IMG/VR virus record: IMGVR_UViG_3300028840_006907
Coordinates: 192,001-256,000 of that record
Source: a virus
DNA: 64,000 nt
Reading direction: 5' to 3' (one strand)
Positions 9,373-57,200 of this stretch are shown here, piece by piece. Made by a program: the position numbers and the translations under genes. Below the pieces are notes generated by a model. It did no database searches, was not told the DNA's origin, and worked only from the letters and a program-made list of their open reading frames with translations. The number at the start of each line of letters is the position of its first letter. The stretch's first letter is position 1.

Positions 9373-10332
9373 ATGAAGTTACCTCAAGTAATTGGTCATG
9401 AAGAATTGAAAATCAGATTGATACCTCGTTTAGAAAAACATCCTGCAGGAGTCTTTCTCTTCTGTGGTCCAGCCAGTGTGGGGAAACGTACAACTGCTTT
9501 TGAAGTGGGTAAATCCATCTTATGCAAAAATAAATCAGAAAAGTGTAAGTGCGATTCATGTAAGAGATTTAATGAAGGTCATCCGGACTTTTTGTGTATT
9601 GGTACTGAAAGTAGAATAAAGGTAGCTGATGTTAATTCTATTATAGATTTTTGTACCACTGCTCCATTTTTATCAAATAGTAAAATTATTGTTATTGATA
9701 ATGCCCATGAAATAACTCTTGAGGCAGCTAACCGGTTATTGAAATTATTGGAAGAACCTCCTTTAAATTTTTCCTTTTTCTTAATTACGTCAAATCCGGA
9801 AGCAATAATACCTACTATTGTTTCCAGGTGTATTAGGTATGAATTTGGAAATTTATCCCGAGAGGAACTGACTATAATTATAAAGAAGAAATTGGGATTC
9901 AGTCCTAAAAAGGCTGAAACTCTGGGATGGCTTGCAGCAGGTTCTTCATTAGATATATTCGATAAGGCTGGAGAGTATTTAAAATATCGAAACATGGCTC
10001 TTGAATTGGTTTCGAATATGAAAAAAAGATATCTGGTAGATTCTATTGATTATATCGATAAGATCGAAAAAGGTGATTTATCTCTTTTTAATGATATGAT
10101 TGTTTTAGTATTAACAGATTTAATATTATTAAAAAATAATATTTCAGAGATTGCAAATATAGATAAGAAAGACAATCTTGTTAAAATAGCTGAGATTTAT
10201 AATGACCGAGCATTGATAGGAATTGTTGGGTTATTCAGTCAAGTAAAAAGATACTTGTATTTGAATATAAATCTGAATCTCTATTTAAAAAATGCTGTGA
10301 TAAAAACATATCCATTATTTAAGGCGGATTAA
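9373..10332 (+). CDS. holB: clamp-loader AAA+ subunit, DNA polymerase III delta-prime-like
   Basis: 319 aa; P-loop FCGPASVGKRTT, cysteine cluster CKNKSEKCKCDSCKRF typical of HolB/DnaX zinc module. Confidence 0.6.
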   Translation: MKLPQVIGHEELKIRLIPRLEKHPAGVFLFCGPASVGKRTTAFEVGKSILCKNKSEKCKCDSCKRFNEGHPDFLCIGTESRIKVADVNSIIDFCTTAPFLSNSKIIVIDNAHEITLEAANRLLKLLEEPPLNFSFFLITSNPEAIIPTIVSRCIRYEFGNLSREELTIIIKKKLGFSPKKAETLGWLAAGSSLDIFDKAGEYLKYRNMALELVSNMKKRYLVDSIDYIDKIEKGDLSLFNDMIVLVLTDLILLKNNISEIANIDKKDNLVKIAEIYNDRALIGIVGLFSQVKRYLYLNINLNLYLKNAVIKTYPLFKAD

Positions 10333-11297
10333 TGAAATATAGGGAAGCTTTAACTTCATTACGTTTTAAGAAGAATACAAAATTTGCTCTAGTTGGTAAA
10401 GAGAGTTATTTGAAAGAATATTTCATTAAAATAGCAAATAAAATCTATAATACTTATACAATAAAAACATTTTTCCCTGAGGACCAGTCAGAAGCTCTCA
10501 GTCTATTGAGATGCGATTCTTTATTTGAAGATAATTTTTTAGTTTTAAATAATTTTGATAAAATGAAGATTGACATTTTTCAGGATACTTTAAATACCTA
10601 TGATGGAGTAGTGGTTATTACTCTCTCAGAAAAAGCTAATATAAAATCGAGAGCTATCACAAAAATTTTTAGTGATTTAACTGTAGTTGAGTGTTCTAAA
10701 CTGCGTGAATACGGCAACGATTATCCTTTATGGATAAGAGGATTGATAACAGAAGCAGGTTTTAGTGCAGGTGATAATATTGACCAATTGCTTTTTTCTA
10801 GAGTTGGGCCGAATATGCATGTCCTTGCTCGGGAACTGGAAAAATTGTTTTTATTAAAATCAGAGGAAAAAGTGATTACTTCAGAGGATGTGAAAAAAGT
10901 CGTTGCAATATCAGCAGTAAGTACTGCATTTGAATTGTTTGAACATCTTTTAAGAAGGAATGTTAATAAAGCGTTGGCTTGTTTTTCCTCTTATTCGAGA
11001 AATAGTGATAATTTTTTCGAGATTGTGTCATTTATAGGTTCTTATCTTGAAAAGATGTATCGGATGATTCTTTTACGGGAGAGAAAATTTGATGTTAATG
11101 ATGTAGCTGATATAGTAGGTATACCTAAATTTCTTGTAAAAATGAAATATTTGCCGTGGGCCTTATCTTTTGGGAAAAATGGTCTCGCTAAAAAAATAGA
11201 TGCTATCTGTAATTTAAACATTCAGTTAAGGTTATTTAGGGGAAATAAAAAAATTCTCTTTGAGAGATTTATTTATAGTTTTTCAAAAGATTATTAA
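10332..11297 (+). CDS. putative clamp-loader delta-like subunit
   Basis: 321-aa ORF translationally coupled (TAATG) to the delta-prime-like gene; size and position fit HolA, sequence support weak. Confidence 0.35.
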   Translation: MKYREALTSLRFKKNTKFALVGKESYLKEYFIKIANKIYNTYTIKTFFPEDQSEALSLLRCDSLFEDNFLVLNNFDKMKIDIFQDTLNTYDGVVVITLSEKANIKSRAITKIFSDLTVVECSKLREYGNDYPLWIRGLITEAGFSAGDNIDQLLFSRVGPNMHVLARELEKLFLLKSEEKVITSEDVKKVVAISAVSTAFELFEHLLRRNVNKALACFSSYSRNSDNFFEIVSFIGSYLEKMYRMILLRERKFDVNDVADIVGIPKFLVKMKYLPWALSFGKNGLAKKIDAICNLNIQLRLFRGNKKILFERFIYSFSKDY

Positions 11298-12002: not shown

Positions 12003-15000
12003 ATGGAGATCGAGATGCTATCACCTTTTGGGAAAATTGTCTGGGAAGATCGATACGCGCTGAAGGATGAATATGGGAAATTAATTGAAAAAAATATTTT
12101 AGAAACATTTCGTAGAGTTGCTACAGCTATTGCTTCTAAGGAAAAAGACTCTAAGTTTTGGGGTGACAAATTTTATAAGATTATGGCAGACCAATCTTTC
12201 TGTCCAGCCGGTAGAGTCCTAGCCCATTCAGGTACACATTATTCTCAACTTCTCAATTGTTTTGTTCTCCCATTCCAGGATGACAGTCTGGAAGAGATTA
12301 TGAACACTGGTAAAAACATGGCTATTGTTCAAAAATATGGTGGGGGCTGTATTGGAGGTGAGAGTAATATTCTTACTAATAAAGGTGTTGTACCATTAAA
12401 AGAAATTGTTGAAGGAAATGATAAAGATCTTAAAGTACTATCTTTTAATTCTGATAATAATGAGATGGAATACTGTGATATTTTAGAAAGACATACAAAT
12501 AATTTATCTGGGGATCGTGTATTCGAAATTGAGTTCGATAATACAAAAGGCGGTGTTGCATCAAGAATAAGAGCTAGCGATTGGCATCCCTTTTTTGTTT
12601 TTGATGGAGTAAAGATAATCCAAGTACGTGCTGATGAGTTAAAACCTGGGATGGCTGTAATAGGCTCAACTGATTTAGGGGTAAATTTAAAGTATGATTC
12701 TATGGGTTGGTTATTAGGTTATATTGCTGGTGACGGTTCGATTGATACTAATAATGGGGAAGATGTACGTGTTAGGGTAGTAGATGACAGTGAAGAGTGT
12801 GTTAAACGTGCAGCAGGAATATTTAATACATCTTATAAACCTTCTAGTGATAAACGTTATAAAGTAAAAATGTGGGCTTGTGAGGTTTATGGAGATGAAG
12901 CTGGGATGGTAAAGGATGAGTTTGGGGGGTATCAAACTAGTGGTACAAAACATGTCCCGAATTCTATCTGGGAAAGTTCTCCTGAAAGAAGACTTTCTTT
13001 TTTAGTTGGGCATATTGATGCAGATGGCTGGTTTAATAAAGAGAAAAAAAGATTTGAAGTTTTTACTGTTAGTAATGAATTGGCAAAAGAATTAATAGCC
13101 TTAGCTGGTGGTCTTGGTATTCGGGCTTCACTACGTTTTAGAAAATCACGTAAAGAAAATGAGCAAGATGGTTGGGAAGTTAGGTATAGTAGCTCTCAAT
13201 TTTCGATTGATTTAATTGTTAATATTAGTGCAAAACATAACCCACTCAATGCTGGATGGGTTATGGGTACTATAAATTTATCTCATGAATGGAAAGATCA
13301 TTTAAAAAGCGTAGGTATTAATGTTTATACAAATAAAGCATGGAGAAAGTCAATTGAAATTGATGGTGTAAAAAGATCATTAGTTTATTGGTTACAGCAT
13401 GGTAAAGCTTCAAGAGAAACTGCTGCTTCTATTCTTAGAGTGTGTGGTGAAGAAAAGATAGCAAGTGCTGTTTTATCTAGCCAAATAGTACTCTCTTCAA
13501 AGGCTACAGGAATTTCAGAAACATTATATGATCTCACTATTGCAAAAAATCAAACATATATGGCATCAGACCCAACTACAGGGGCTTATGTTGTTGTGCA
13601 TAATACAGGATTTAATTTCAGTAGGCTCAGACCATCAGGTTCATATATAAAAGGTGTCAATGGTCGTAGTAGTGGACCCATCGGATTTATTAGCATGATG
13701 TCAACTATCTCAGAAATAATTGAACAAGGCGGGACCCGCAGGGGCGCGTCAATAGGGCTTCTTGAGGCATGGCACCCTGATTTATGGGAGTTTGTTTCTT
13801 ATAAAACTGAACATAATTGGGAATGTCTTCGAGAATTTATTGATGTGAATGATTACGATAAATGGGAATCATTTAAATATGAAAATTTATATAAATGGCA
13901 AATGTTCAATGTCTCTGTAGGAATTACTGATGATTTCTTAGAATCTGTTAAAAACAATAAGGAATGGGTATTTAATTGGAAAGGGGAAGAGTGGGAACTT
14001 TATACCGTTATTTTTAAGAAATATATAAGTGAAGGTAATTACAAAGAATTAACATTTGAAGTTACAGCTAACAATGATCCTACTGCTATATGGAAAGTAA
14101 GAAAGAAAATACCTTATCCTACTGGTAGTGATATATTTGAAGTTACATCAAAAAGAAAAGTAAAAGCTTCCGAGATCTGGGATAGACTGTGTTATAATGC
14201 CTGGGCTGATGGATGTCCGGGCATTATCAATTTAAGTACTGCTCGTAGGATGCATAATTTAGAATATGCCTTCCCTATAGAAGCTACTAATCCTTGTTTT
14301 ACTGGAGATTGTAAATTGGATACTATCAATGGTCCTATGACTTTTGAAAGTCTTGAGGATAAAGAAATTGATCTTAAAACTCCATATGGTTCTATTGAAA
14401 AAGGTAGAATTTGGAAAACAGGGGTAAAATCTACTATCAGATTAAAATTTAATGATGGTAGTTCAATAACGGTTACTCCCGATCAACTATTTTTGTGTCA
14501 TAAAGGAAAAGAGATACGGGCTAAGGATTGTTTAAATAAATGTTTAAATACTTCGGATATACCGTTAAGTGTAGTTTCAATAGAGGATAATGGTGAACAA
14601 GAGGTCTATGATTTTTCAATCCCATGTAATTGGGGTATAGTTAATGGAATAGTGGCTCATAATTGTGGGGAGCAACCTTTAGGGGGATTTAGTTCTTGCA
14701 ATTTGTCAAGCATACTCCTTCCTAATTTTGTTATAGAGGATACCAAATCAGTTGATTGGGATAAACTTAAAGAGGTTGTTCATACTGCTGTCAGATTTTC
14801 GGATAATGTTGTAGATAATTGTGAATTTCCGATTCCGGAAATTAAAGATAAAGCATATCAGGAAAGACGTGTCGGACTAGGTACTATGGGAGTTCATGAC
14901 ATGTTAATCAAAATGGGACTAGATTATGATAGTGATGTGGGTCGTGATGCTGTGGAAGAGGTATTAAGATTTATTCGGGATGAAGCTTATAAAGCATCAA

Positions 15001-16085
15001 TTAAAATTGCGGAAGAGAAGGGGTCTTTTCCAGCCTTTAAAAAGAAAGAAATTTTAAAGAGTGGGTTTATAAAAACACTTCCACCAGAGATCGTAAAATT
15101 GATTGGGAAAAATGGTATTAGAAATAGTGCCCTTTTATCCCAGGCACCCACAGGATCGATCTCAGCGTTAAATAACGTTTCATCTGGGTGTGAACCATGG
15201 TATTCATTATCCTTCCAAAGAAACACTCGTTTGGGTTCCTATGAAGATGGTTGTCCAACTTATATTGAATGGAAGAAAAATAACCCCGAAGCTCCCATAC
15301 CATCCTATTTTAAAACAGCTCCAGAAATAAGCCCTACAGATCACGTAAAAATGCTTATTCTTTTTAGTAAATACATTGATTCAGCGGTGAGTAAGACAGT
15401 TAATCTCCCAAATCATACAACAGTAGATACAGTTAAAGAGACATTTATTTATGCTATGGAAAATGGTGTAAAAGGTCTGACTGTTTTTCGGGATGGTTCT
15501 AAAGAAGGTGTTTTAGTAAATAAACAAAACAAGAAAAAAATTGAAGAAATAATTCCATATACAGATAAAGAAGATTGTTATGAAAATGTAATGTCTCCTA
15601 AAAAGCGGGGAGATAAAACAACTGGTTCAACATATCGTATTCATATGCAAAGTCATAATTTATATGTTACAGTTAATCGAAATAGAGATGGTGATTTAGT
15701 AGAGCTTTTTACTACAGTTGGAGAGAGTAAAAAACCTAATGCACATCATACTAGTGGTGTTGAAGATTCCTGGGCAGAGGGTCTTGGTAAAATAATTAGT
15801 CTAGCTCTGCGTGCAGGAGTGAAACCTAGTTCAATAATTCGGAATTTAAAAAATATTCCATCAGATAAACCAGTATTTGTTACTATCGGTGATAATGAAA
15901 ATTCTGAGCATATACCTTCTCCACCTCATGCTATTGCTAGGGTAATAGAAGATGAGATGAGTAATGGTGAAGAAGAAATTAATATTCAAGGAGGTTATTG
16001 CTCAGAATGTGGCTCAACAAATACTAAAAAGAAGAGTCCCACTTGTTACGAGTGTTTTGACTGTGGCTACGTAGCTTGTGGTTAA
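12003..16085 (+). CDS. nrdJ: ribonucleotide reductase, class II (adenosylcobalamin type), containing two inteins
   Basis: Extein motifs GGG/TGFNFSRLRPSG and TNP/CGEQPL restored after removing two in-frame insertions; C-terminal Cys-rich tail. Confidence 0.8.
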   Translation: MEIEMLSPFGKIVWEDRYALKDEYGKLIEKNILETFRRVATAIASKEKDSKFWGDKFYKIMADQSFCPAGRVLAHSGTHYSQLLNCFVLPFQDDSLEEIMNTGKNMAIVQKYGGGCIGGESNILTNKGVVPLKEIVEGNDKDLKVLSFNSDNNEMEYCDILERHTNNLSGDRVFEIEFDNTKGGVASRIRASDWHPFFVFDGVKIIQVRADELKPGMAVIGSTDLGVNLKYDSMGWLLGYIAGDGSIDTNNGEDVRVRVVDDSEECVKRAAGIFNTSYKPSSDKRYKVKMWACEVYGDEAGMVKDEFGGYQTSGTKHVPNSIWESSPERRLSFLVGHIDADGWFNKEKKRFEVFTVSNELAKELIALAGGLGIRASLRFRKSRKENEQDGWEVRYSSSQFSIDLIVNISAKHNPLNAGWVMGTINLSHEWKDHLKSVGINVYTNKAWRKSIEIDGVKRSLVYWLQHGKASRETAASILRVCGEEKIASAVLSSQIVLSSKATGISETLYDLTIAKNQTYMASDPTTGAYVVVHNTGFNFSRLRPSGSYIKGVNGRSSGPIGFISMMSTISEIIEQGGTRRGASIGLLEAWHPDLWEFVSYKTEHNWECLREFIDVNDYDKWESFKYENLYKWQMFNVSVGITDDFLESVKNNKEWVFNWKGEEWELYTVIFKKYISEGNYKELTFEVTANNDPTAIWKVRKKIPYPTGSDIFEVTSKRKVKASEIWDRLCYNAWADGCPGIINLSTARRMHNLEYAFPIEATNPCFTGDCKLDTINGPMTFESLEDKEIDLKTPYGSIEKGRIWKTGVKSTIRLKFNDGSSITVTPDQLFLCHKGKEIRAKDCLNKCLNTSDIPLSVVSIEDNGEQEVYDFSIPCNWGIVNGIVAHNCGEQPLGGFSSCNLSSILLPNFVIEDTKSVDWDKLKEVVHTAVRFSDNVVDNCEFPIPEIKDKAYQERRVGLGTMGVHDMLIKMGLDYDSDVGRDAVEEVLRFIRDEAYKASIKIAEEKGSFPAFKKKEILKSGFIKTLPPEIVKLIGKNGIRNSALLSQAPTGSISALNNVSSGCEPWYSLSFQRNTRLGSYEDGCPTYIEWKKNNPEAPIPSYFKTAPEISPTDHVKMLILFSKYIDSAVSKTVNLPNHTTVDTVKETFIYAMENGVKGLTVFRDGSKEGVLVNKQNKKKIEEIIPYTDKEDCYENVMSPKKRGDKTTGSTYRIHMQSHNLYVTVNRNRDGDLVELFTTVGESKKPNAHHTSGVEDSWAEGLGKIISLALRAGVKPSSIIRNLKNIPSDKPVFVTIGDNENSEHIPSPPHAIARVIEDEMSNGEEEINIQGGYCSECGSTNTKKKSPTCYECFDCGYVACG
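12348..13604 (+). mobile_element. intein 1 with LAGLIDADG homing-endonuclease domain (419 aa)
   Basis: Starts Cys (CIGGESNIL), ends VVVHN followed by Thr; two LAGLIDADG-type blocks LLGYIAGDGSID and FLVGHIDADGWF; splits the RNR GGGxGxxxSRLRP motif. Confidence 0.8.
14295..14663 (+). mobile_element. mini-intein 2 (123 aa, no endonuclease domain)
   Basis: Starts CFTGDCKLDTING, ends NGIVAHN followed by Cys; splits the RNR NPCGE active-site motif. Confidence 0.75.
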
Positions 16086-16123: not shown

Positions 16124-16429
16124 ATGATTACAGAGATCCAAGGTAATTGTATTTCAAAAGAAGGTAATGTAATAGTGGATTTTTATACAAGTACATGTAG
16201 TCCTTGTAAAGCTTTGAACCCTATTTTAGAGGAAATTTCTGAAATTGAAGGGTTAGTAGTTCAAAAAGTTGATGTTACGAAGAATCCTGAATTATCTCAA
16301 CAATTTGGGGTGATGAGTGTCCCTACTGTGGTATTCATGAAAAATAATCAAGTGAAGAATACGGTACGGGGTTTAAAATCCAAAAATGATTTGCTATCGA
16401 TGGCAAGGAAATGCTTTAGTGGACGATGA
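16124..16429 (+). CDS. thioredoxin-like protein
   Basis: CSPC active-site motif (YTSTCSPCKAL); AGGAG RBS 8 nt before ATG at 16124; directly downstream of RNR. Confidence 0.7.
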   Translation: MITEIQGNCISKEGNVIVDFYTSTCSPCKALNPILEEISEIEGLVVQKVDVTKNPELSQQFGVMSVPTVVFMKNNQVKNTVRGLKSKNDLLSMARKCFSGR

Positions 16430-18212: not shown

Positions 18213-18812
18213 ATGGGAAAAACAGAAAGATTAAAAAAACTTGAAGAAATTGCAGAGAAGTGTTATAACTGTGAATTAGGTAAAACACGTAATAGGTTAG
18301 TCTTTGGTGAAGGTAGTGCTAACTCAACTTTTATGATAATAGGTGAAGGTCCTGGGGAAACAGAGGATAAAGAAGGTCGTCCTTTTGTGGGGAGATCAGG
18401 TCAATTATTACGAAAGATGTTAACAGCCATTGATCTTAATCCTGAAAAAGACGTTTTTATTGCTAACATAGTAAAATGTCGCCCTCCGAAAAATCGGGAT
18501 CCTAAAAAGAATGAAATTACAACATGTATAAAATTTTTGAGAAAACAGATAGAGATTATTGAACCGAAATTAATAATTCTTTTAGGTAAGTCTGCAGTAA
18601 AAGGCATTTGCCCTGATTTAGCGAAAGAGAGTGTTGAAAGATTACGTATTATATCAAAAAATCTCGGTATGTTAATTTACAATGATATTCCAGTTGTTGT
18701 TACTTATCATCCTAGTGCTTTACTAAGAACTCAATGGAGAAGAGTAGGTGCCAAGGAAGATTTTGAATTTCTTCAGAATGTTTATAAGGAATTCAAGAAT
18801 GATGAGCGATAA
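18213..18812 (+). CDS. uracil-DNA glycosylase, family 4
   Basis: GEGPGETEDKEGRPFVGRSGQLL and HPSALLR motifs typical of family-4 UDG; N-terminal CxxC pair. Confidence 0.8.
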   Translation: MGKTERLKKLEEIAEKCYNCELGKTRNRLVFGEGSANSTFMIIGEGPGETEDKEGRPFVGRSGQLLRKMLTAIDLNPEKDVFIANIVKCRPPKNRDPKKNEITTCIKFLRKQIEIIEPKLIILLGKSAVKGICPDLAKESVERLRIISKNLGMLIYNDIPVVVTYHPSALLRTQWRRVGAKEDFEFLQNVYKEFKNDER

Positions 18813-23601: not shown

Positions 23602-24954
23602 TTGACATTTGATGACGTGGTAGGCCAAGAAGGGACTGTTCTAGTCTTAAAAAAAGCTGTAAGCAATGATAATTATGGTTCAGCCTATCTATTCTCTGGG
23701 CCTTCAGGTGTTGGGAAAACTACAATAGGTAGAATCTTTTCAAATACGATCCTTTGTGAATCACCTATAAATAATAGCCCATGTCTTAAATGTGAATCTT
23801 GTTTATTATTTAGAAAAGAGCAACATTTTAGTTATAGAGAATTAGATTCTGCCTCTTTTGGTGGTAAAGAAGATATGGTAAAATTACGTGATGATGCCTC
23901 TTCTCTGGGAGTATCAAAGAAAAAGATCATTCTTCTTGATGAGAGCCATGATATCAGTAAAGCTGGTCAGGATTCCTTATTAAAACAAATAGAACAGTGT
24001 CCTGAGCATTTAATTTATTTGTTCTGTACGACTGATCCTGATAAAATGAATGAAACTTTACGAAACAGATGTACTCCATTTCATTTTACCCGTATAGAAC
24101 CACCTCTTATAAAACAAAGATTAAAAGTAATTTGTGAAAAAGAAGGCTTTACATATCAGGAAGAAGTATTGGATATTATATCGGAGAGATCTGAAGGTCA
24201 CGTACGCAATGCCATAAATCTATTGGAGTTAGTCGCTTATCTTGGTGAAATTACTATTGAGAATTTAGACAAGATCTCCAAAGATTTTGAAGAAGATATC
24301 TTTACTATTTTATCTAATTTAGGTATTGATCTTAATAAAGTTATCAGTACTTATAGAAAGATTTCTTCCTATTTATCGGTATTTGAATTCTATAACTCAT
24401 TTCTATCTTTAGTAAATGATTCGGTAAAATTATTATACGGCTATGAAGATTTTCTTGAAAAAAGAAAAAAATTATTAATGAAATTGAAAACCATTCATGG
24501 TCAGAGTCTCCCTGAGTTCCTGAATTACCTTATTACACGGGATAAATATGTGGAAAAGGTTGGAATTGAGAGTGATTTGTTAATTTTACATTACAAATAT
24601 AGTGCTGATAGTTTTGTACCTCGGATACAACAAAAACCCTTAAAAAACCCACAAATAACTAATCCTAAAAATAAAGATGAAGAACTTAAACCTCCGTCTT
24701 TCACTGTGGATGAACTCACAAAAATGGGCGTTGAAAAACGTAGTGAGTTTCTTCGTAATCAGCGAAAAAATCATAAATTGGAGGATAAGGAAGAATCATT
24801 AGTTGTGCCAGCAGAATGGCCCTTACCAAAAGAAGAGAGACCGGGGAATACTGACAATGGGGAGGTTGAGTTAACACCTCACGAATTCTCTTTGAGATTG
24901 GTAGGAGGACGAGGTGGCAAAAAGCAACAAATGGCTGATTCTCGAACTGAATGA
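23602..24954 (+). CDS. dnaX: DNA polymerase III tau/gamma-like clamp-loader ATPase
   Basis: GPSGVGKTT P-loop, zinc module CLKCESC, SRC-type region; conserved N-terminal YRP.TFDDVVGQE begins in-frame upstream of 23602, so true start may be ATT at 23575 after RBS AAGGGAG. Confidence 0.8.
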   Translation: MTFDDVVGQEGTVLVLKKAVSNDNYGSAYLFSGPSGVGKTTIGRIFSNTILCESPINNSPCLKCESCLLFRKEQHFSYRELDSASFGGKEDMVKLRDDASSLGVSKKKIILLDESHDISKAGQDSLLKQIEQCPEHLIYLFCTTDPDKMNETLRNRCTPFHFTRIEPPLIKQRLKVICEKEGFTYQEEVLDIISERSEGHVRNAINLLELVAYLGEITIENLDKISKDFEEDIFTILSNLGIDLNKVISTYRKISSYLSVFEFYNSFLSLVNDSVKLLYGYEDFLEKRKKLLMKLKTIHGQSLPEFLNYLITRDKYVEKVGIESDLLILHYKYSADSFVPRIQQKPLKNPQITNPKNKDEELKPPSFTVDELTKMGVEKRSEFLRNQRKNHKLEDKEESLVVPAEWPLPKEERPGNTDNGEVELTPHEFSLRLVGGRGGKKQQMADSRTE

Positions 24955-33143: not shown

Positions 33144-35036
33144 ATGAGTCTTTCTGAACTTTGTACAAATTATATAGGTTCTAATAGGTTAAAAGATGAG
33201 ACTGAGCGAAATATCATAGAATTTGCTGAGGCTCAATGGGGCCTAGGTATGGGTACTATGCCTGGTATCCCGCCTTTATTTCCTGTACAAAAGTTCATTT
33301 TTAAGACTTATTATAATATTCCTCTTGATAACGGTGATGACCGAATAATAATTGTTAAAGACAAGTTTAATGAGAAGGTCAGATACCGATTTAATGAGAA
33401 AGAATATTTAAATTTCTTGTTCAATGAAGGTCGTATAAATATCAAGGAGGTCACTGGAGACCCTAAAGATTCCAGAACTGACCTGGTATTAGTCATAGGA
33501 AGAAGAGGTCTAAAAACAAGTAGTATAGCGGTTTTAGTAAGTTTTGAAACTTACAAACTTCTTAAAAAAGTAAGTCCTCATGAGTATTATGGTATTATGC
33601 CTGATGATGAGATTCGGGTATCATGTGTTGCTACCAATAAAGAACAGGCTGGTGAACTCTTTCGAAGAATCAGTGGCCATCTAGAGCGTTCTGAATATTT
33701 TAAAAAATACCGTGAAAAACCCACATTGAGTTACATGAAATTAAGTACTCAACGTGATATTGAGGAGTACGGTCCTGGTAATAGATCCTCACTTCGTATT
33801 GTTGCCTCTCCCTGTACCGGTAGAGGACTTAGAAGTTATAATAATATCATAGCTGTTTTAGATGAGATGGCTCATTTCTTTGAGTCTGATACATCCACAG
33901 ATAAGTCAGATAAAGTGATTTATGATTCTGTTACTCCTTCTGTTGCAAAATTTGTCACTCCTGAAGGTGATCTTCATGGGAGAGTTATAAGTATATCATC
34001 TCCAAATGATCGATCAGGTAAATTCTATGAACTCTATGAGCGTTCCATGGAAGCTGATTGTGACAATATATTAATGATTCAGGCTCCTACCTGGGAAGTA
34101 GACTATACTCTTTCACCTAAATACCTAAGAGCGAAATATCTAGAAAATGCTGTTTCATATATGAGCGAGTTTGGTGCTGAGTTCTCTGATAGAGTGTCTG
34201 CTTGGATAGATAATGAGCAAATGTTAAGGATTAACATTATTCCAGGTTTGAAGTTAAAAAAGATAAGCTATGAGCGTACGCCTCATTTTATGGGTATTGA
34301 CGTTGGTCTTAAACAGGATGGAACTGCTATTGCAATTTGTCATATAGTAAAAGAAATGATTGGTGATATTGAAAGAAATTTGATTGAATTGGACTGCATA
34401 GATGCACGTTATGCAAAAGATGAGGATAAAGAATATTTCCATCCGGATGAAATAGCGGATTGGATAGCTACTTATAATGAGAAGTTTTACATTGTAAAAG
34501 GTATTATGGACCAATATTATGGTTTAGCTATGATACCTAAACTTCATGAAAAAGGTATAAAACAGATTAATGCAGCCCATTTCAGTCGGGATTTTAATTC
34601 AAAAGTATATCAAAATTTAATGTCGAAAATGCTCGATGTCTCATTAAGAATTCCAGAAGGTGATGAACATTTAGTTGATGGTAAAAAAACAAAGGATCTT
34701 GATTTAGTTACAGAAATGTTAAAGTTACGGGCTGTTACTCATTCAAAATATTTAATTACAGTAAAGGCTCCAGATGTAAAGAATGCTCATGATGATAGAT
34801 CTGATGCTTTTGCTCGTGCAGTCTATTTGGCTACTGAATATATGGCTTCTGGAGGTGGTATAGTAAAAAATAATCGTATTGAGAGTACTGGTAAAAACGC
34901 TTCTTATCGCCAGTATTATATGAAACAAAAAAGAAATGCGATGTATACAATGCGGCCTTCATCTGCCCTTCAAATGGAGATTTCAAGAAACAGACATTTT
35001 AATTCATTAATGAGCCAGCTCGGAACGAGGAGGTAA
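33144..35036 (+). CDS. terminase large subunit
   Basis: ATPase Walker A-like VIGRRGLKTS, Walker B IIAVLDEMAHF; C-terminal RNase-H-like nuclease motifs GIDVGLKQDGTAIA and AHDDRSDAFARA. Confidence 0.7.
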   Translation: MSLSELCTNYIGSNRLKDETERNIIEFAEAQWGLGMGTMPGIPPLFPVQKFIFKTYYNIPLDNGDDRIIIVKDKFNEKVRYRFNEKEYLNFLFNEGRINIKEVTGDPKDSRTDLVLVIGRRGLKTSSIAVLVSFETYKLLKKVSPHEYYGIMPDDEIRVSCVATNKEQAGELFRRISGHLERSEYFKKYREKPTLSYMKLSTQRDIEEYGPGNRSSLRIVASPCTGRGLRSYNNIIAVLDEMAHFFESDTSTDKSDKVIYDSVTPSVAKFVTPEGDLHGRVISISSPNDRSGKFYELYERSMEADCDNILMIQAPTWEVDYTLSPKYLRAKYLENAVSYMSEFGAEFSDRVSAWIDNEQMLRINIIPGLKLKKISYERTPHFMGIDVGLKQDGTAIAICHIVKEMIGDIERNLIELDCIDARYAKDEDKEYFHPDEIADWIATYNEKFYIVKGIMDQYYGLAMIPKLHEKGIKQINAAHFSRDFNSKVYQNLMSKMLDVSLRIPEGDEHLVDGKKTKDLDLVTEMLKLRAVTHSKYLITVKAPDVKNAHDDRSDAFARAVYLATEYMASGGGIVKNNRIESTGKNASYRQYYMKQKRNAMYTMRPSSALQMEISRNRHFNSLMSQLGTRR

Positions 35037-35039
35037 AAA

Positions 35040-38000
35040 GTGTCGGAAGTTTATCAGGGTGATTATGCCCCTAATTTATATAATGAGGAAAAGCGTTATT
35101 ACTTATTTCAAGCACAACAGTTGACAAATCTAACTGATGCTGAACTTCGTGATTTACATAATATATCGAACACGTATGTCCGTCGTACAGTGCAAGCTCA
35201 AATTGGTGATTGTGCAATACAAGATGGTTATAAAATTGCTGAGAATACTTCGGATAAGTCTAACAATTTTCTTATAACAGGAGGAAGTGGTACTCTTGAT
35301 GATCCAGGGATGTATTATCTTAAAGGATATCGATTATTCCTTTTAGGTGATATAGCCTATAAAGATCAAACAGATACAGGTACTATTACCGATGACGGTT
35401 ATACTAAAACTATATTACCTGCTCTGACAACGCCTACTGGGGTCACCTCCACTTTAAATAGCCTTTCTTTAAGTAATCCCACTCTTATCTGTTGTGGTGA
35501 TACGAGTGCTATTGCTAACTCTTCTGATTGGGGTCGAAATTGGGTTGATAGAAATGCTATGACATCCCAAAATCTAAATGGTTCTTCTTTAGGAGACGCC
35601 TCAGTCGGTTATGCAGTTGGTAATGTGGGAGCTGTTCTTCGTACAACTGATAGTGGAAATAGTTGGATAAATATCCGAACAAGTTTACCAACTCTACCAA
35701 CAAATTATCAAAATGTTAATTTCTTTGATGCTTATTTTGTGAACTCTTCTATCGGATGGATCACGGGTCAAAGTGGTGCCATATTAAAAACAATAAATGA
35801 TGGGACTAGTTGGACTGTACAGGGATCTGGTGTCACTACTTCAGATTTAAGTGGTGTTCATGGGACTGGATTAACTGATGTGTGGGCTGTCGGTAGTAGT
35901 GGTATGGTGGTAAAAACGACTGATGGTACAACCTGGTCTCAACAAGCTAGTGGAACTCTTTTTAATTTATCAAGAGTACATGCTATTAATACATTGGTCG
36001 CTTATGCTGTTGGTAATAGCGGTACTATAATAAAAACAACGAATGGTGGTACATCTTGGTCTGCACTTACTTCTGATACTACAGAAAATCTTCGTGATGT
36101 TCATTTCACGGATTTAAATAATGGTTGGGCTGTTGGTGATAATGGTACGATTACCCGAACAGATGATGCAGGTTCAACCTGGGATTCTTCTACTATTGCC
36201 AGTGTCGATTTAAGAGCTGTTACTTTTTATGATACCACAGGATTTACTGCTGGTGGAAGTGGTGAGATTTACAGAACTCTTGATAATACAAATTGGGTGA
36301 AATATCGTACTGATTATGTTTACATTGATTTCCATCTAGCTGAGGTTTCAGGTGATGCCACCTCAGGTAGTGAATACATAGATACAAGTTTAGTGGATGC
36401 GACTGTAGGTTATCCAAGTGCCAATAGATTGAGGGTGGTCTCTGATGTAAAAGTGTCTGAAGGGTGGCCAGCTCCAGCCGATTACACCAATACTGATGCT
36501 ACCCTTCAGCATTATATCGCTCCTCTTGCGTCAATAGAGCGTTCGGTGGGTACAAGTGATATAACTTCAGCTAACATCACAGATTTAAGAACTGTTGTTC
36601 GTACTATTGGTGAGATTGATGCTGCCCTTAAAGACGGAAGTATTGGTACTTCTGCAATAGCTGATGGAGCTATTACCCCTGATAAACTTGATAGTACTGG
36701 CGATTATACAATGGGATCACTCAGTATCTTGGGAGATTCTTCTATTGCTGGTGATTTAACTATAGGCGGTATATTAGTTGTTAGTGATTATAGAACTAGC
36801 ACTATCATGGATAATCTTGTGGTACGGGGATCTGCTCAATTAGGTGATTCAACAGCTCCATATGAGGATAGTGTTAATATTTATGGTAATATTACTCAAG
36901 TATTAGATTCAACTAAAATCGCTTATGATATACAAACATCTTCAACAACTGATGCTTCTCCAATAATTAAAATTGTTTCTGATAGTACAGGTAGTGTATG
37001 GCATGTAGAAAGTAAATCTCAAACGACATCGAGTCTTTTTGATGCTACTACACAGAATATGGGGTATGATTTCCATTTAAATCATTTAGGATATGAAGGT
37101 GGCTTATTTAAATTAAGGGATGATGCAAGTAACCATACCATTACTATATCTAAGACAGCTCCAGGATTTAGAGGGTCTGTTTTAGATGTTACAAGTAATA
37201 GCAATGACCCAACAATAAATATCGTAAACAGAGCTTTATCTGATTCAACAAGTTTAAGTATTGACCAGACTCATGGGACCATGATTACTTTGAATACGTT
37301 GGGTGATGCTTCTGGTATCGATATTTATTCACAAGGCTCTGGAAGAGACCTACATATAGATCATTCAGGTACTTTAGGAATAGCTGTAGATATTACTAGT
37401 TCCAGTGCACAGGTTGCAATGAATCTTGTAAATCAGATGGGACCTGCTGTAGTAATAACTCAGAATGGTGATGATGAAGCTCTGTTGGTTTTAAATAAAG
37501 ATTCTACAACCTTAGGAAGAGCTTTAGAGATTAACCATAGAGGTAGTGATGTTGGATTAGGTGTTTATAATACTGGTACTGGAATGGGTCAGCTAATTTC
37601 ACATGTAGGTGATTCTACTCATCCTGCATTAGATATTTATGTAGCAGGGAATGAAAAAGGTCCAGCTCTTCGTATAAATAAGGCAAATGATGAAACTGGT
37701 GAAGGTATAAGAGTATGGAATCAAGGTTTTAGCGAATCCTTAAGATTAATTCAGGATAGAACCGATTCCTCAGCTACAGTACTTTTAATTGAAAGCCAGA
37801 GTATTGGTTATGATGTTAGCTCTAGTAATTGGAATATAGATAGCTCAGGTAATATTTATACCGCTGGAAGTATTACTTCTGATTCTACTGCTACTGTAAC
37901 AAGTTCTAAATTTGCTTTTGATAGTACTTATTATATGACTTCTACAGGGATGTATCTTGATAACAGTGGCTATGATTCCTCTAATCCTGCTGTAGCTGGT

Positions 38001-41000
38001 AGGGCGTTTATAGAATCAGGTTTTTTAAGAGTCAGTGACGGTACTACAGCTTCTCCAATACCTTCATGGGGTGCTACTGGTGCCACAGGAAATACTGGGG
38101 CTACAGGATCCACAGGGGCTACAGGATCAGGGACTCAAGGAACAACAGGAGTTCAAGGATCTGCCGGGGCTACTGGAGCTACTGGACCGGCTGGAACTGG
38201 TTCTACAGGAGTCCAAGGTGTCCAGGGTGAAACCGGTATTCAGGGTCTCCAAGGTGATACGGGTGTTAGTTTAGGAGCAACAGGCTTGCAAGGTATCACA
38301 GGTCTCAGGGGATTCACGGGACTGCAGGGTCAAACCGGTGTTGCTGGGGAAACCGGAGTTCAGGGAGTGCAGGGACAAACCGGAGCTTTTGGTGGCCCTC
38401 CAGGAGAAACTGGCGTGCAAGGTGTCCAAGGAAACACTGGAGTACAAGGAACTACTGGAGTTCAAGGATCAACCGGAGTTCAAGGAATTCAAGGTCAGAC
38501 CGGAATTCAGGGAATCCAAGGAAATACTGGAGTACAAGGAATTCAAGGTAATACTGGAGTACAAGGTCAAACCGGAGTAAGTGGAGAAACTGGAGTACAA
38601 GGAACTACTGGAGTTCAGGGTATTCAAGGTCAAACTGGTATAGCAGGTCAGACAGGTATAGCAGGTCAAACCGGAGTTCAAGGAATCCAGGGAATTCAAG
38701 GTCAAACAGGTGCCCAGGGTTTAACAGGAGTAGCAGGTGAGACTGGAGTCCAAGGATCTCAGGGAAATACCGGAGTTCAAGGTATCCAAGGGCATACGGG
38801 AGCTGGGATACAAGGTACTACTGGTGTTCAAGGTTTACAAGGTCAGACTGGCTCTCAAGGTACTACTGGAATTCAGGGAGAAACTGGTGTAGGTATCCAA
38901 GGTCAGACGGGTGTTGCCGGTGTTGATGGCCAAACCGGAATTCAAGGAATCCAAGGAACCACAGGAGTTCAAGGTGAAACAGGAACTCAAGGAATTCAAG
39001 GAAATACCGGAATTCAAGGAACTCAAGGAAGCACAGGAGTTCAAGGAGAAACTGGAGTTGGTGCTCAAGGAACTACTGGAGTGCAAGGAATACAAGGAAA
39101 TACTGGAGTTCAGGGAACAACCGGAGTTCAGGGAATTCAAGGTCAAACCGGTGTTCAGGGAACACAAGGAGAAACAGGTTATATAGATTCTTCCAGTGTT
39201 AATCATAACGCTCTTCTTAATTTAACTGTTGGTGATGACCATACTCAGTATGCTTTTTTAGCTGGTCGTACTGGTGGGCAAACTATAAATGGTGGTGATG
39301 CTGCTTCAGACGTTTTAACTCTTCAAAGTACTACTGATACTACAAAAGGGAACATCATTCTTAATCCTATTAGTGGGGATGTCCCTGGTAAAGTTGGTAT
39401 AGGAGTAACATCTCCGATTTATCAATTACATGTTGGAGAGATTTTAGATGGCGGTACTGTAGGTATATGTATAAATAACCAGTATACTGCAAATGGATCA
39501 GTTGATGAAACTGCTAGTTTAATATATAGATTTGGTAGGCCACTCAGTCCTCAATATAGAGTAGCAGGTCAAGTATTAGTAGGTAAGGAACAGGATTGGT
39601 GGGATTATAATAGTACTGACGCTTATATGGCTTTTCATACTACTCGTGATACAATTTCACGTGAACAGATGAGAATTAATGCTCAAGGTTATGTTGGAAT
39701 AGGTACAACAAATCCCCAAGCTAAGCTTCATGTAACGACATTTGCTCAATTTGATGAAGGCTTTTCAACTAATATCGGTATAGGTGTTACCGCTCCTCAG
39801 GCACAGTTACATGTCGGAGAGAGTGTAACTGATGGAGATGTTTCAATAATTGTGAATAACTGGTCTTGGACTGGAGGGTCTGTAGATGAGACAGCTAGTT
39901 TACAATTCCGTTTTGGGCCTCCTCCAAGTAATTATTCTGCTGGTAAAATTTCTGCTCATAAAACTTTAGATTATATGAGTTTCGATAATAGAGACTCTTA
40001 TATGACTTTTAGTGTTGTAAATAATCAATCTGAAGTTGAGCGTATGAGGATTTTAAATGATGGAAAGGTAGGTATTGGTACAACTGATCCTCAAGAAAGA
40101 CTGCATGTAATTGATAGGGGTCAATTTGATATGGGGCTACAACAACCTATTGGTATAGGTGTAACGGCTCCATTAGCTGAATTACATGTTGGTAATAGTA
40201 CTAATGGTGGTGATGTAGGCATTATTATTAATAACCAATACAATACTACTGGATCAGTTGATGAAACAGCAAGTTTAATTTATAGATTCGGTACAGTAGG
40301 AAGTGCAAATTATCGAGTAGCTGCCAGAATTTGTGCTCATAAAGAATTAGACTGGCAATCTTTTGATAATGTCGATTCAGCTTTAGCTTTTAGGACTACT
40401 CGAAATCAATCTGAAAATGAAAGAATGAGAATAACTAGTGAAGGTGATGTAGGAATTGGTACTGTCACACCTTCAGAAAAATTACATGTAGAAGGTAATA
40501 TTTATACTACTAATGGTTTTCTTGCTGGTGGGAACATCCAAATTGAAGGGGACTTTTTAGGAGGGACTGATGGTAATTCTAATTTAGGCTCTACTTCAAG
40601 AAGATTTAATAACCTTTATATGGCTTCTTCGATAAATTATAATTCTGATCTAACCTTTGATTGTACGGGTACCCATGTAACCCTTACAACTGGTGGTAAC
40701 GTAGGTATAGGAACTACAAATCCCCAAGGATTATTTCATGTTTCTGATGATACCAATGGTGGTGATGTAGGTATTGTTGTTAGTAATCGCTATATTGGTG
40801 GTGGGTCAGTTGATGAAACAGCTAGTATGATTTATCGTTTTGGCCATCCGTTAGGAGTAGCTAATAAAGTTGCAGCCAGAATAAGTGCCCATAAAGAATT
40901 AGATTGGGCAAACTCTAATAATACTGATGCTGCTTTGATTTTCTGGACTACTCGTGATGCTGTTGAACGACAACAGATGAGAATTGATAGCAATGGTTAC

Positions 41001-54250: not shown

Positions 54251-57200
54251 ATGGCCAAGACAAAAAGGAAATGGATTGAGCTGGATTGGTACAATCCCAA
54301 TGCCTTACGTGCACAAGACATACCTTACGATCAAACCGAAAGTGTAAAAGATGCTATAGATAGAGCTGCCTCTGGAGTTCTCGGTCCGACGGGGACCACG
54401 GGTTCGACCGGTTCAACAGGTTCGACGGGTCCAACGGGTCCGACGGGAGCCACGGGTGCGACGGGAGCAGGAATCCAGGGTGAAACCGGAGTCGCTGGAG
54501 TTCAAGGAGCTACCGGAACCGGTGGTGGTGGAGATACTGGTGTCCAGGGTGAGACCGGTTTACCCGGAGCCACAGGAATCCAAGGTACAACCGGTATCCA
54601 GGGAACTACAGGAATCCAAGGTGAAACTGGAATCCAGGGACATACAGGTACAGTTGGAACAACGGGTGTTCAAGGAGAAACCGGTTCTCAGGGTACTACT
54701 GGAATCCAGGGAGAAACTGGAGTAAAAGGTGAAACTGGTATTCAAGGTCAAACCGGTATAGCTGGTGGAGCAGGATTTCCAGGAGCAACTGGAGTCCAGG
54801 GCGAAACCGGAGTCCAAGGAACTACTGGGGTTCAAGGGGAAACCGGGGTTCAAGGAACCACAGGAGTAGCCGGAGCAACCGGAGTCCAGGGAACTACTGG
54901 CGTCCAGGGAACTACTGGCATCCAAGGTGAAACGGGTGTCCAGGGAGATACTGGAGTTGGTGCCACTGGAATCCAAGGAACCACAGGTATCCAGGGTCAA
55001 ACCGGTGTTCAAGGTATCACCGGAGCTTATGGTGGTCCTCCTGGAGAAACTGGTGTCAAGGGAGAAACCGGAGTACAGGGGGCTACTGGAATCCAAGGTC
55101 TTCAAGGATTGCAGGGAACCAAAGGTGAGACCGGAACACAAGGTATTCAAGGCCAGACCGGAGTTCAGGGAGAAACTGGAGTTCAAGGGCAGACTGGTAC
55201 AGGTGCTCCAGGAGCCACTGGAGTTCAAGGGCAGACTGGTATCCAGGGAACCACTGGAATAGGTTTAGGTTCAACAGGAGTAGCGGGAGCAACTGGAATT
55301 CAAGGTACTACCGGAGTTCAAGGTAGGACTGGAGTCCAAGGATTTACCGGAGCTGCTGGTTTAGGTGAAACTGGTATCCAAGGAGCTACCGGAGTCCAGG
55401 GTGCCACAGGTATTCAAGGGACTACTGGTGCAGGAATCCAAGGAGCCACAGGTATTAGTGGTGACACGGGAGTTCAAGGAGCCACAGGAATTAGAGGTAC
55501 TACTGGTGCAGGAATCCAAGGAGCCACGGGGGTTCAGGGCATTCAAGGTCAAACTGGAGCCCAGGGCGAAACCGGAGTCCAGGGTGAAACCGGAATAGAA
55601 GGTTCTCAATTTGCAGGATTTAATTATAAAGCAAAAACAGACAATCAATCTGATACAGATCCTGGTATAGGAAATTTAAAGTGGAGTGCTGTAGCTCAAG
55701 TCACATCTAGTGAGCTTTATGTGGATGATGCTGACGTTAATTCTACGGATCTCAGTAATTTTTACCTCACTTTAAAAGCTGCCGACTCTTTACGTATTGT
55801 TCGTATGGAAGATCCTTCTCAGTATCAGATTTTTAATATAACAAACGTTACTGATAGAACCGGATGGTTCCGTTTATCTGTTACACCTGTTGTTTCAGGT
55901 GGTTCGACTTTTAGTTTAAATGATAATATCATACTGATATTTAGTATATCAGGTCCTAGAGGTCAGACCGGAGTAAAAGGTGAGACTGGAATTCAAGGAA
56001 CTACAGGTGTTGCCGGAGCCACAGGAGTCCAAGGTCAAACTGGAATTCAGGGTCAAACTGGAATCCAGGGCATACAGGGCCAGACTGGAATTCAAGGACA
56101 AACTGGTATTCAAGGTCAAACAGGAATCCAAGGTCAGACAGGTGTTGGCGCTCAGGGTGCTACTGGTGTAGCTGGTCAAACCGGGGTCCAGGGAGAAACT
56201 GGGATACAAGGTCAGACTGGTGCAGGAATCCAGGGAACTACTGGTGTTCAAGGCGTTCAAGGATTAACAGGTGTGCAAGGCCAGACAGGTGCCGGAATCC
56301 AAGGTGAAACCGGAGTCCAGGGTACTCAAGGTTTAACCGGTATACAGGGTCAGACAGGTGCTGGAATCCAAGGAGAGACTGGTGTTCAGGGAAACACTGG
56401 GGCTTTTGGTGGTCCTCCCGGAGAAACTGGTGTTCAGGGAGAAACTGGTGCACAAGGTTTAACTGGAGTCCAAGGTCAAACCGGAGCAGGTATTCAGGGA
56501 GCCACTGGTATTCAAGGAGTTACTGGAGTTCAAGGCCAAACCGGTGCTGGTATTCAAGGAGTCACTGGAATCCAAGGACAAACTGGTATACAGGGTCAGA
56601 CAGGAGTAGCAGGTCAGACCGGAGTCCAAGGAATACAAGGCCAGACAGGAGTAGCAGGTCAGACCGGAGTTCAAGGAATTCAAGGACAAACCGGAATAGC
56701 AGGTCAGACCGGAGTTCAGGGTATACAAGGTCAAACTGGAATTCAAGGGCAGACTGGTGCTGGAATCCAAGGTACAACTGGAGTAGCCGGAGCTACAGGA
56801 GTTCAGGGAATTCAAGGTCAAACAGGAGCTGGAATCCAAGGTACAACTGGAGTCCAGGGAACTACAGGAGTTCAAGGTGAAACTGGTACTGGTATTCAGG
56901 GAGAAACTGGTACGCAAGGTATTCAGGGTCAAACCGGAATTCAGGGACAGACTGGGATTCAAGGTAATACTGGTGTAAAAGGTGAAACCGGAGTTCAGGG
57001 TTTTCCAGGTCCTCAGGGTACGAAAGGTGATACTGGTGCTCAAGGTATTCAAGGTGAGACAGGAACTCAAGGAATTCAGGGCCAAACTGGAGTAGCTGGA
57101 GAAACTGGAGTTCAGGGTCAAACGGGTACTCAAGGAATTCAGGGTCAGACTGGTGTAGCTGGTGCAACTGGTGCGGGAATTCAAGGTCAAACTGGTGTTC

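Follow-up and report, generated by a model that had tools for sequence, protein, structure and literature searches.

A class II ribonucleotide reductase gene of an uncultured phage with two inteins, one of them a mini-intein without the block B histidine

The open reading frame at positions 12003-16085 (plus strand, as for every feature below) of the window, the 64,000-nucleotide stretch of viral DNA that was analysed, very probably encodes the precursor of a class II (B12-dependent) ribonucleotide reductase (RNR), NrdJ, of an uncultured huge phage, interrupted by two class 1 inteins that would be spliced out. Since the 1990s inteins have been known from both of these exact sites in RNRs, which makes the finding an added example, not a principle. 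The one unusual detail is a small intein without the histidine that almost all inteins use in the first splicing step. Annotation pipelines present the gene as a 1356-aa RNR with the inteins unmarked; for any phylogeny or structural model of huge-phage RNRs it is important to work from the true 818-aa product.

The frame runs uninterrupted through 1360 aa plus the stop codon. With the base composition of the window, 7.5% of codons should be stops, which gives an open frame a chance probability of 5e-47 for 1360 codons, 5e-15 for 419 and 6e-5 for 123. An identical protein (P0001), on JGI contig Ga0180437_10000019, is called from the ATG at 12015; the N-termini of relatives, MEIGM/MGIDM, favour a start at 12003. 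Excision of aa 116-534 and aa 765-887 leaves an 818-aa spliced extein that matches TIGR02504 (NrdJ_Z) in a single stretch, residues 13-628 to model positions 4-604 of 606, at 550 bits (cutoff 399.95), which bears out the class II assignment made in a first-pass annotation of this DNA. With the unspliced precursor the same match is broken into three pieces, and the class I model TIGR02506 gives the spliced extein 280 bits, under its cutoff of 341. Short antisense ORFs within nrdJ (60-79 aa) have no support and are taken as chance, and no RNR small subunit was seen among the subset of window ORFs scanned.

Alignment of the spliced extein to T. maritima NrdJ (1xje), a check that the first-pass annotation had named, is contiguous across both insertion sites. 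Precursor residues 73-116 and 535-616 align with chain residues 121-163 and 163-244 across site 1, and residues 715-765 and 886-1084 with 272-322 and 320-522 across site 2; between these, at aa 616-715, the extein has a lineage-specific insertion of about 70 aa relative to T. maritima NrdJ. The N-extein (aa 1-115, 12003-12347), which ends in QKYGGG, contains the RNR all-alpha domain (Pfam Ribonuc_red_lgN) and LNCFVLP (12252-12272). The middle extein (aa 535-764, 13605-14294) runs from TGFNFSRLRP to EATNP. The C-extein (aa 888-1360, 14664-16085), assigned by Pfam and the 1xje alignment, begins with CGEQ and contains SSCNLSS (14685-14711), a TSCPD domain and a Cys-rich tail, CSEC...CYEC..C...C (15999-16082). 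The cysteines of LNCFV and SSCNL align with the corresponding cysteines of 1xje and are presumably the redox pair. The stretch N763-P-C888-G-E890 aligns with T. maritima N320-P-C322-G-E324, in which we take C322 to be the thiyl-radical cysteine; Cys888 thus doubles as that residue and as the +1 nucleophile of intein 2. The T. maritima residues N320 and E324 are the Asn/Glu ribose ligands (PMC4728125).

Intein 1 (419 aa, aa 116-534, 12348-13604) is a class 1 intein with a nested LAGLIDADG homing endonuclease. Its junctions, QKYGGG/CIGGES and VVVHN/TGFNFSRLRP, are in frame, and its removal yields exactly GGGTGFNFSRLRP. Block A (CIGGES, 12348-12386), block B (SDWH with His194, 12564-12599), block F (LYDLT, 13518-13568) and block G (VVVHN, 13581-13604) are followed by the +1 Thr at 13605, so that the class 1 residues C116, His194, the block F Asp, H533-N534 and T535 are all present. 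Pfam Intein_splicing scores it at 41.6-55.7 (cutoff 35.8), TIGR01445 scores 37.2 in the precursor (cutoff 24.5), and a single alignment stretch to NF006207, a model of intein-containing archaeal NrdJ, covers N-extein, intein 1 and C-extein. The endonuclease said at first pass to be retained is recovered by LAGLIDADG_3 (47 bits, cutoff 22.5), Hom_end (36.6, cutoff 21.1) and homology to PI-PfuI (1dq3, E=7e-17). Its two motifs are GYIAGDG (12708-12743) and VGHIDADG (12996-13034), whose acidic GDG/ADG residues are kept in 17 full-length allelic inteins. Relative to P0002, dN/dS is 0.19 in the endonuclease core and 0.05 and 0.12 in the splicing parts. The value for the core lends indirect support to the prediction that the endonuclease cuts the intein-less allele site-specifically. 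In T. maritima NrdJ terms, site 1 (GGG/TG) falls in a conserved strand flanked by two effector-phosphate ligands, K158 and R171. The view that both inteins sit at catalytic motifs needs refining, as site 2 alone, at the thiyl-radical cysteine, is strictly at a catalytic residue.

Intein 2 (aa 765-887, 14295-14663) is a 123-aa mini-intein consisting of the HINT domain only, which places it among the smallest contiguous inteins. Its junctions, EATNP/CFTGDC and IVAHN/CGEQPL, are again in frame, and its excision gives exactly TNPCGEQPL. Both elements had been placed, and their restored motifs predicted, in the first-pass annotation, and its coordinates and motifs proved exact. Block A (CFTGDC, 14295-14333), block F (VYDF, 14598-14642) and block G (IVAHN, 14643-14663) supply C765, the block F Asp and H886-N887, followed by the +1 C888. 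With both curated models it scores just under the cutoff, TIGR01445 giving 24.3 (cutoff 24.5) and Pfam PF14890 29.6 bits (cutoff 35.8). An AF2 model nevertheless adopts the HINT fold (pLDDT 94.8, pTM 0.86), and the top 50 Foldseek matches in the PDB are all intein/HINT-family autoprocessing domains (intein-like, Hedgehog), at probability 1.00. An exhaustive HMMER search found at least 323 cluster representatives related to intein 2 at E<=1e-3; of 150 that were inspected, most occupy the same site, xNP/C. This position, directly before the thiyl-radical cysteine, is the commonest RNR intein site (Dassa et al. 2009, PMC2677866).

The relatives of the gene display the stages of a homing cycle. 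Among 67 homologues (extein identity at least 58%) on syntenic metagenomic contigs, 0-4 inteins occur at five sites; 23 of them, 812-846 aa long, have neither insertion and are intein-free, and the others carry 1-4, frequencies that are biased upward because the sample was collected with an intein-containing query. Versions of intein 1 without the endonuclease (154-229 aa) are found in P0005, P0006, P0015 and P0018, and the closest relatives of the host gene carry such a version. Conversely, P0017 has at the site of intein 2 a 314-aa, LAGLIDADG-bearing relative, in keeping with the earlier claim that intein 2 has lost its endonuclease. These empty, endonuclease-less and endonuclease-bearing alleles support the reading of the two inteins as being at different evolutionary stages. 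How similar the inteins are does not follow how similar the exteins are: the splicing domain shares 80% identity with that of P0002, 68% with that of P0005 and 63% with that of P0068, whereas the corresponding extein identities are 67%, 80% and 40%. Together with 66 close syntenic relatives, this nrdJ forms an unusually complete natural homing-cycle series for a single gene in a single phage lineage, in which one site may hold a full-length, a partly deleted or a minimal intein.

Base composition gives no sign of recent arrival, with a GC content of 0.344 in intein 1, 0.317 in intein 2 and 0.359 in the extein. When 78 extracted inteins were compared by phmmer with all 122 six-frame ORFs of at least 80 aa in the window, the nrdJ ORF alone matched. 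Downstream of nrdJ by 38 bp is a thioredoxin gene (16124-16429; Pfam Thioredoxin, E=4e-20), found at the same position in loci L001-L005 and likely to encode the reductant partner of NrdJ; the syntenic order in the relatives' loci is delta', delta, hypothetical, nrdJ, trx. A megablast search of GenBank phages with the gene gave no match, a scan of IMG/VR with peptide patterns taken from the protein found no relative, and in tblastn the best hits of the extein, class II RNRs of Geobacillus and roseobacter phages, were no more than 31% identical. The lineage of this NrdJ phage is so far one of metagenomes only.

Both inteins would have to leave the precursor by protein splicing before the RNR could be active. 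In each, Cys1 would attack the preceding peptide bond in an N-S acyl shift, the N-extein would pass to the +1 residue, Thr535 for intein 1 and Cys888 for intein 2, and the terminal Asn would cyclise with the assistance of the penultimate His, so that the exteins join and GGGTGFNF and TNPCGEQ are restored. That both inteins do splice is our inference. The intein 1 endonuclease would cut intein-less nrdJ alleles, and repair would copy the intein into them; co-infecting phages are the presumed setting for this spread. Intein 2 would be an endonuclease-less survivor of a large NP/C intein family, now inherited only vertically, and we propose that it has been kept because anything but a precise deletion would ruin the active site.

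How might a mini-intein splice without the block B histidine? In block B of intein 2 (ITVTPDQ), the position of this histidine (B:10) is taken by Gln64 (codon CAA, 14484-14486), whereas in the alignment Npu DnaB, Ssp DnaB and Npu DnaE all have His here; the first-pass annotation had missed the absence of the histidine. The position is His in 38 of 42 same-site inteins, and in the wider intein 2 family it is His in 136 of 147 representatives and Gln in 7. Four inteins, mutually 41-64% identical and one of them with an endonuclease, share the Gln, and the nearest neighbours of the Gln-bearing family representatives mostly have His, a distribution which suggests that His has been replaced by Gln repeatedly and that the change is tolerated. 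Cys6 and Gln64 coincide perfectly in the 42 same-site inteins. A functional co-variation of the two was considered and dropped, since the wider family has Cys6 together with His (P0206, P0266) and Gln together with Glu or Met at position 6; their link is probably one of shared ancestry. The literature describes the block B His as the most highly conserved residue of inteins, many of which cannot do without it (PMC4031507, PMC6333167). It is not strictly defining, because Tko CDC21-1 is accepted as an intein without it, and compensation for its absence has been documented in both natural and engineered inteins (PMC6333167).

In intein 2 the -1 residue is Pro, and Asn stands in for the block F His. 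These are two further departures from the norm, and together with Gln64 they could make the intein splice poorly or conditionally. It could even be that intein 2 or the whole gene is decaying, the loss of the block B His having crippled N-terminal splicing and left a nrdJ copy that functions barely or not at all. The three departures would fit such decay, as would the rarity of His-less inteins, of which a 2014 review (PMC4031507) knew only two, one being a pseudogene. We consider it unlikely, as the frame is open throughout, blocks A, F and G and the +1 Cys of intein 2 are intact, the Gln is kept in diverged inteins and recurs among His-bearing neighbours, and loss of the His can be compensated. 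Moreover, comparison with two relatives that share the Gln gives dN/dS of 0.07-0.17 for the extein and 0.24-0.42 for intein 2, values that, like those for intein 1, are rough because dS was near or above 1 in every comparison made. Purifying selection and the position in the active site suggest that intein 2 still splices. More tentatively, it is possible, if rather less than probable, that intein 2, like its three closest relatives, is functional and achieves the N-S acyl shift without a block B His, through Gln64 or another residue, with Pro at -1 and on a scaffold of 123 aa, and that His changed to Gln several times in the NP/C family. If so, nature would have solved His-less splicing a second time, Tko CDC21-1 being the first case, and engineers would gain a very small Cys1/Cys+1 intein. 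Since intein 2 naturally does without the block B His, it offers a cheap experimental test of that residue's dispensability.

Redox-dependent inteins exist, and intein 2 could be viewed as a conditional (e.g. redox-gated) splicing switch that holds the phage RNR inactive until conditions suit, and not as a purely selfish remnant. It has six cysteines in 123 aa (positions 1, 6, 68, 79, 83 and 111), its +1 residue is the catalytic Cys, a thioredoxin gene follows nrdJ directly, and a weakened N-terminal catalytic set could make splicing rate-limiting. Such a role is nonetheless very unlikely: only Cys1, Cys6 and Cys79 recur in P0013 as well as P0005, the two mini-intein relatives, Cys68, Cys83 and Cys111 not being conserved, position 6 is usually Met in the wider family and its Cys is also seen alongside His, and intein-free alleles in sister genomes indicate that the enzyme needs no switch of this kind. 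The notion of two non-intein insertions, either lineage-specific RNR domains or HINT-like modules of the bacterial intein-like kind, that are retained in the mature enzyme could draw on the sub-cutoff scores of intein 2 and on the real lineage-specific insertion in the extein, but it is extremely improbable, given that both elements start with Cys and end in His-Asn followed by Thr or Cys, that the 23 intein-free homologues are close and otherwise colinear, that a 123-aa domain kept at NP/C would be incompatible with the 1xje active site, that intein 1 is homologous to PI-PfuI and the structural matches of intein 2 are exclusively to the intein/HINT family, and that, to our knowledge, essential enzymes do not carry bacterial intein-like domains at their conserved sites.

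As inteins of a NrdJ precursor, both elements have known counterparts. PI-PfuI (Pfu RIR1-1) interrupts the same enzyme, the class II RNR of Pyrococcus furiosus, apparently at the same site as intein 1, judging from the single-stretch NF006207 alignment. The two have in common a block B S-x-W-H-P-F-F-V, two LAGLIDADG motifs and an extra region between endonuclease and block F. Their match (64.7 bits over 338 aa) covers the endonuclease, post-endonuclease and block F regions and indicates homology, not close relationship. They differ in length (419 aa against 454 aa for PI-PfuI), in the second catalytic acid, which is Asp (IDADG) in intein 1 and Glu (FDAEG) in PI-PfuI, and in host, a phage for the former and a hyperthermophilic archaeon for the latter.

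Intein 2 shares its site and +1 Cys with the NP/C RNR inteins (PMC2677866), whose family signature is CFTGDM...CTPDH...VHN/C. With its 123 aa it lies at the lower end of that family's size range, and it departs from the signature in having Gln in place of the block B His, Val where the family typically has the preceding Cys, and Cys instead of Met at position 6. Tko CDC21-1 and its orthologues likewise naturally lack the block B His and reside in an essential replication-related host protein (PMC4031507, PMC6333167), although host and insertion site are different. In Tko CDC21-1, Lys58, outside the conserved blocks, compensates (PMC4031507), whereas in intein 2 Gln64 or another residue is the candidate; the -1 residue is Leu in the former (PMC6333167) and Pro in the latter. 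Structurally, the intein 2 model comes closest to the minimal and split inteins gp41-1, NrdJ-1, Npu DnaB, Ssp DnaB and Npu DnaE (TM 0.8-0.9), which are similar in size (~125-140 aa) and 17-24% identical in sequence; unlike intein 2, gp41-1 and NrdJ-1 are split, and the NrdJ-1 site lies one residue further downstream (PMC2677866).

What remains of the nrdJ precursor once its two insertions are taken out? The gene is a single uninterrupted ORF on the + strand (12003..16085, 1360 codons), and translating it and cutting at the coordinates proposed in the first-pass annotation bore out the position and frame of both inteins. Intein 1 (12348-13604, + strand, aa 116-534, 419 aa) lies in frame between the flanks QKYGGG|CIGGES…VVVHN|TGFNFSRLRP, and intein 2 (14295-14663, + strand, aa 765-887, 123 aa) in frame between EATNP|CFTGDC…IVAHN|CGEQPL. 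At the base composition of the window, frames of 419 and 123 codons would stay open by chance with probabilities of ~5e-15 and ~6e-5, respectively, and antisense ORFs within the gene reach only 60-79 aa. Joining the three extein pieces yields an 818-aa protein in which GGGTGFNFSRLRP and TNPCGEQPL become contiguous, exactly the restored motifs that had been claimed. Over model positions 4-604 of 606, this spliced extein follows the NCBIfam equivalog TIGR02504 (NrdJ_Z) without a break (550 bits, cutoff 400), the unspliced precursor matches it in three broken pieces, and the class I RNR model scores the extein under its own cutoff. The best PDB match, Thermotoga maritima NrdJ (1xje), aligns continuously across both insertion points: at site 1, query 73-116 and 535-616 pair with chain 121-163 and 163-244, and at site 2, query 715-765 and 886-1084 pair with chain 272-322 and 320-522. 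The alignment of the spliced extein to NrdJ, proposed earlier as a check, came out in favor of inteins; the presence of two inteins is confirmed, and their interpretation as inteins of a class II ribonucleotide reductase is supported. The extein C-terminus holds a TSCPD domain together with a tail rich in Cys. Compared with T. maritima NrdJ, the extein also has an extra segment of ~70 aa (precursor aa 616-715, window ~13848-14147), which is kept throughout the clade and has no intein features, and so is a genuine lineage-specific part of the RNR.

The two insertion sites differ in how close they are to catalysis. The first residue past intein 2, Cys888, is aligned with the thiyl-radical cysteine of the T. 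maritima enzyme, C322. N763 and E890 align with T. maritima N320 and E324, which are ribose 3'-OH ligands (PMC4728125). Site 1 (GGG|TG) falls between the positions of T. maritima K158 and R171, both of which bind the specificity-effector phosphates (PMC4728125), and by hand alignment it adjoins the backbone of Escherichia coli A252, a contact of the substrate base. Because of these neighbors, site 1 counts as a conserved functional strand, although it is catalytic in a looser sense than site 2; the description of both inteins as sitting at catalytic motifs holds strictly for site 2, where the radical Cys888 follows.

PI-PfuI, an intein and homing endonuclease of the Pyrococcus furiosus RNR, is the nearest solved structure to intein 1 (E=7e-17). 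From block B (SDWHPFFV in intein 1, SPWHPFFV in PI-PfuI) the alignment takes in the two LAGLIDADG motifs and the region after them, and extends to block F. Pfam Intein_splicing, LAGLIDADG_3 and Hom_end each score above their curated cutoffs, as does TIGR01445 for intein 1 within the precursor, in agreement with the 419-aa LAGLIDADG intein first described. Precursor aa 55-658 align in a single stretch with the intein-containing archaeal NrdJ model NF006207, which indicates that the insertion site is probably shared with that model. The class 1 residues are complete (Cys1, block B His, block F Asp, His-Asn and +1 Thr), and the acidic residues of both LAGLIDADG motifs (GDG, ADG) are kept in 17 full-length inteins that share this site. 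Compared with its closest full-length relative, in the homologue P0002, intein 1 has a dN/dS of ~0.19 in the endonuclease core and of 0.05 and 0.12 in the N- and C-terminal splicing parts, values that are rough because dS is saturated. Rough as they are, these ratios speak for constraint and against decay.

Intein 2 scores slightly below the cutoffs of the sequence models (Pfam 29.6 bits, cutoff 35.8; TIGR01445 24.3, cutoff 24.5), so that the suggested search with intein profiles succeeded for intein 1 and narrowly missed for intein 2. Because of these scores its fold was tested. An alignment of nine sequences gave an all-beta AF2 model with a mean pLDDT of 94.8, and each of its best 50 PDB matches is an intein or an autoprocessing domain of the HINT family, including gp41-1, Npu and Ssp DnaB, Npu DnaE, NrdJ-1 and Mtu RecA (TM 0.8-0.9). 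Together with its Cys1…HN|C ends, this upholds the assignment as a 123-aa mini-intein. When 1.8 billion cluster representatives were searched exhaustively with HMMER, 323 relatives came up at E<=1e-3; of the 150 examined, most occupy an xNP|C site with the signature CFTGDM…CTPDH…HN|C. Since about half are mini-inteins of 124-135 aa and the remainder contain an inserted endonuclease, intein 2 is at the bottom of the size range in a very common family. In eight representatives (P0125, P0137, P0140, P0146, P0210, P0222, P0239 and P0181) the intein is shifted downstream by one residue (NPC|C…), to where the split NrdJ-1 intein is reported to lie.

The window source points to an uncultured huge phage, given its gene content and the contigs concerned: a protein identical to the precursor is encoded on JGI contig Ga0180437_10000019 (388 kb) and on a second contig of 469 kb. 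The window contains a terminase-large-subunit-like ORF (33144-35036, +) with weak but significant similarity (PHROG E=1e-12), a RecD2-like helicase, a UvrD helicase, an NAD-dependent ligase, a primase fragment, a sigma region-4 protein and one tRNA. The clamp-loader delta' and delta genes (9373-11297, +) lie just upstream of nrdJ and, with a third clamp-loader-like gene, a gamma/tau-like AAA+ gene (23602-24954, +), point to a phage-encoded bacterial-type replisome. Two giant ORFs may encode fiber or surface proteins, one of 2337 aa (35040-42053, +) with collagen triple-helix and BNR/YCF48-like repeats and one of 3078 aa (54251-63487, +) with collagen triple-helix repeats in 21 stretches. A thioredoxin gene (16124-16429, +) starts 38 bp past the nrdJ stop, and since this position is kept in 4/4 fetched relatives, thioredoxin is likely the dedicated reductant of the Cys-rich NrdJ tail. 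No further inteins were detected in the window beyond the two in nrdJ; its UDG gene (18213-18812, 199 aa) lacks one, and the UDG gene of a related genome (L004:10311-10818) has an intein with a LAGLIDADG_2 endonuclease. GenBank phage records gave no DNA match to nrdJ and a best protein identity of 31%.

Searching with the whole precursor recovered, besides the identical protein, 66 homologues with 58-81% extein identity. These are the same gene in related genomes, because five fetched loci have one gene arrangement in common (delta', delta, hypothetical, nrdJ, thioredoxin). Inteins are absent from 23 of the 67, and the others have one to four over five sites (GGG|T, QGG|S/T, NP|C, PTG|S/T and SK|T), intein-bearing genes being over-represented in this set because the query itself contained inteins. 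The sites QGG|S/T, PTG|S/T and SK|T, empty in the window gene, are occupied in sister genomes (P0015, P0007, P0014), with a maximum of four inteins in the 2078-aa P0015. At GGG|T, 11 of 15 inteins are ~399-423 aa long and four (P0005, P0006, P0015, P0018) are 154-229 aa, with the endonuclease cleanly deleted internally; P0013 has no intein there (ATGGCTGTAGTTCAGAAGCTAGGTGGAGGT|ACTGGGTTTAATTTCAGTAAGTTACGTCCT). At NP|C, the nearest relatives of intein 2 are the mini-inteins of P0013 (64% identity) and P0005 (46%), and the 314-aa intein of P0017 (41%) has a LAGLIDADG domain at precisely the point of a short loop in intein 2, consistent with the endonuclease loss that had been proposed. Allele comparisons, and not just the lengths of the two inteins, thus back the idea that they stand at different evolutionary stages. 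Another intein type of ~490 aa with a C-terminal Gln (…NNLQ|C) occupies NP|C in P0004, P0014, P0024, P0025, P0035 and P0052, and in its mini versions (150-180 aa) the last residue is Asn (…NGKN|C). For the splicing domain of intein 1, identity is 80% with P0002 (extein 67%), 68% with P0005 (extein 80%) and 63% with P0068 (extein only 40%). Because intein and extein identities disagree, the pattern fits horizontal movement of intein 1 between alleles, although faster evolution of mini-inteins could contribute to the mismatch.

Is intein 2 still active? Its block B reads ITVTPDQ, and in alignments Gln64 (codon CAA, 14484-14486) stands where solved DnaB and DnaE inteins have the block B His; among the 42 inteins that the first search gave for this site, 38 have His there. 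Sequencing error can be dismissed, since Gln64 also occurs in the inteins of P0013, P0005 and P0017, and the residue is evidently real. Gln replaces the block B His in 7 of 147 wider NP|C-family representatives, three of which have His-bearing nearest neighbors, and this suggests that the replacement occurred repeatedly, apparently several independent times. Cys6, considered as a mechanistic partner of Gln64 because of apparent co-variation, was dropped, as it also accompanies His elsewhere in the family. With dN/dS of 0.24-0.42 against 0.07-0.17 for the exteins, intein 2 appears to evolve faster than its host yet to remain constrained, and without splicing it would part N763/P764 from the radical Cys. 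On both grounds we predict that intein 2 probably still splices.

How does this gene compare with known systems? RNR inteins of the PI-PfuI and NP|C types are known already, and here they occur in a phage class II RNR. The additional interest is modest, and lies in the rich allelic series among relatives and in a natural 123-aa mini-intein that lacks the block B His. A 2014 review ranks this His as the most conserved residue in inteins and counts just two that lack it, a pseudogene and Tko CDC21-1 (PMC4031507). Intein 2 resembles Tko CDC21-1 in being a natural intein without the block B His, which in Tko CDC21-1 is compensated by a lysine (PMC4031507; see also PMC6333167).
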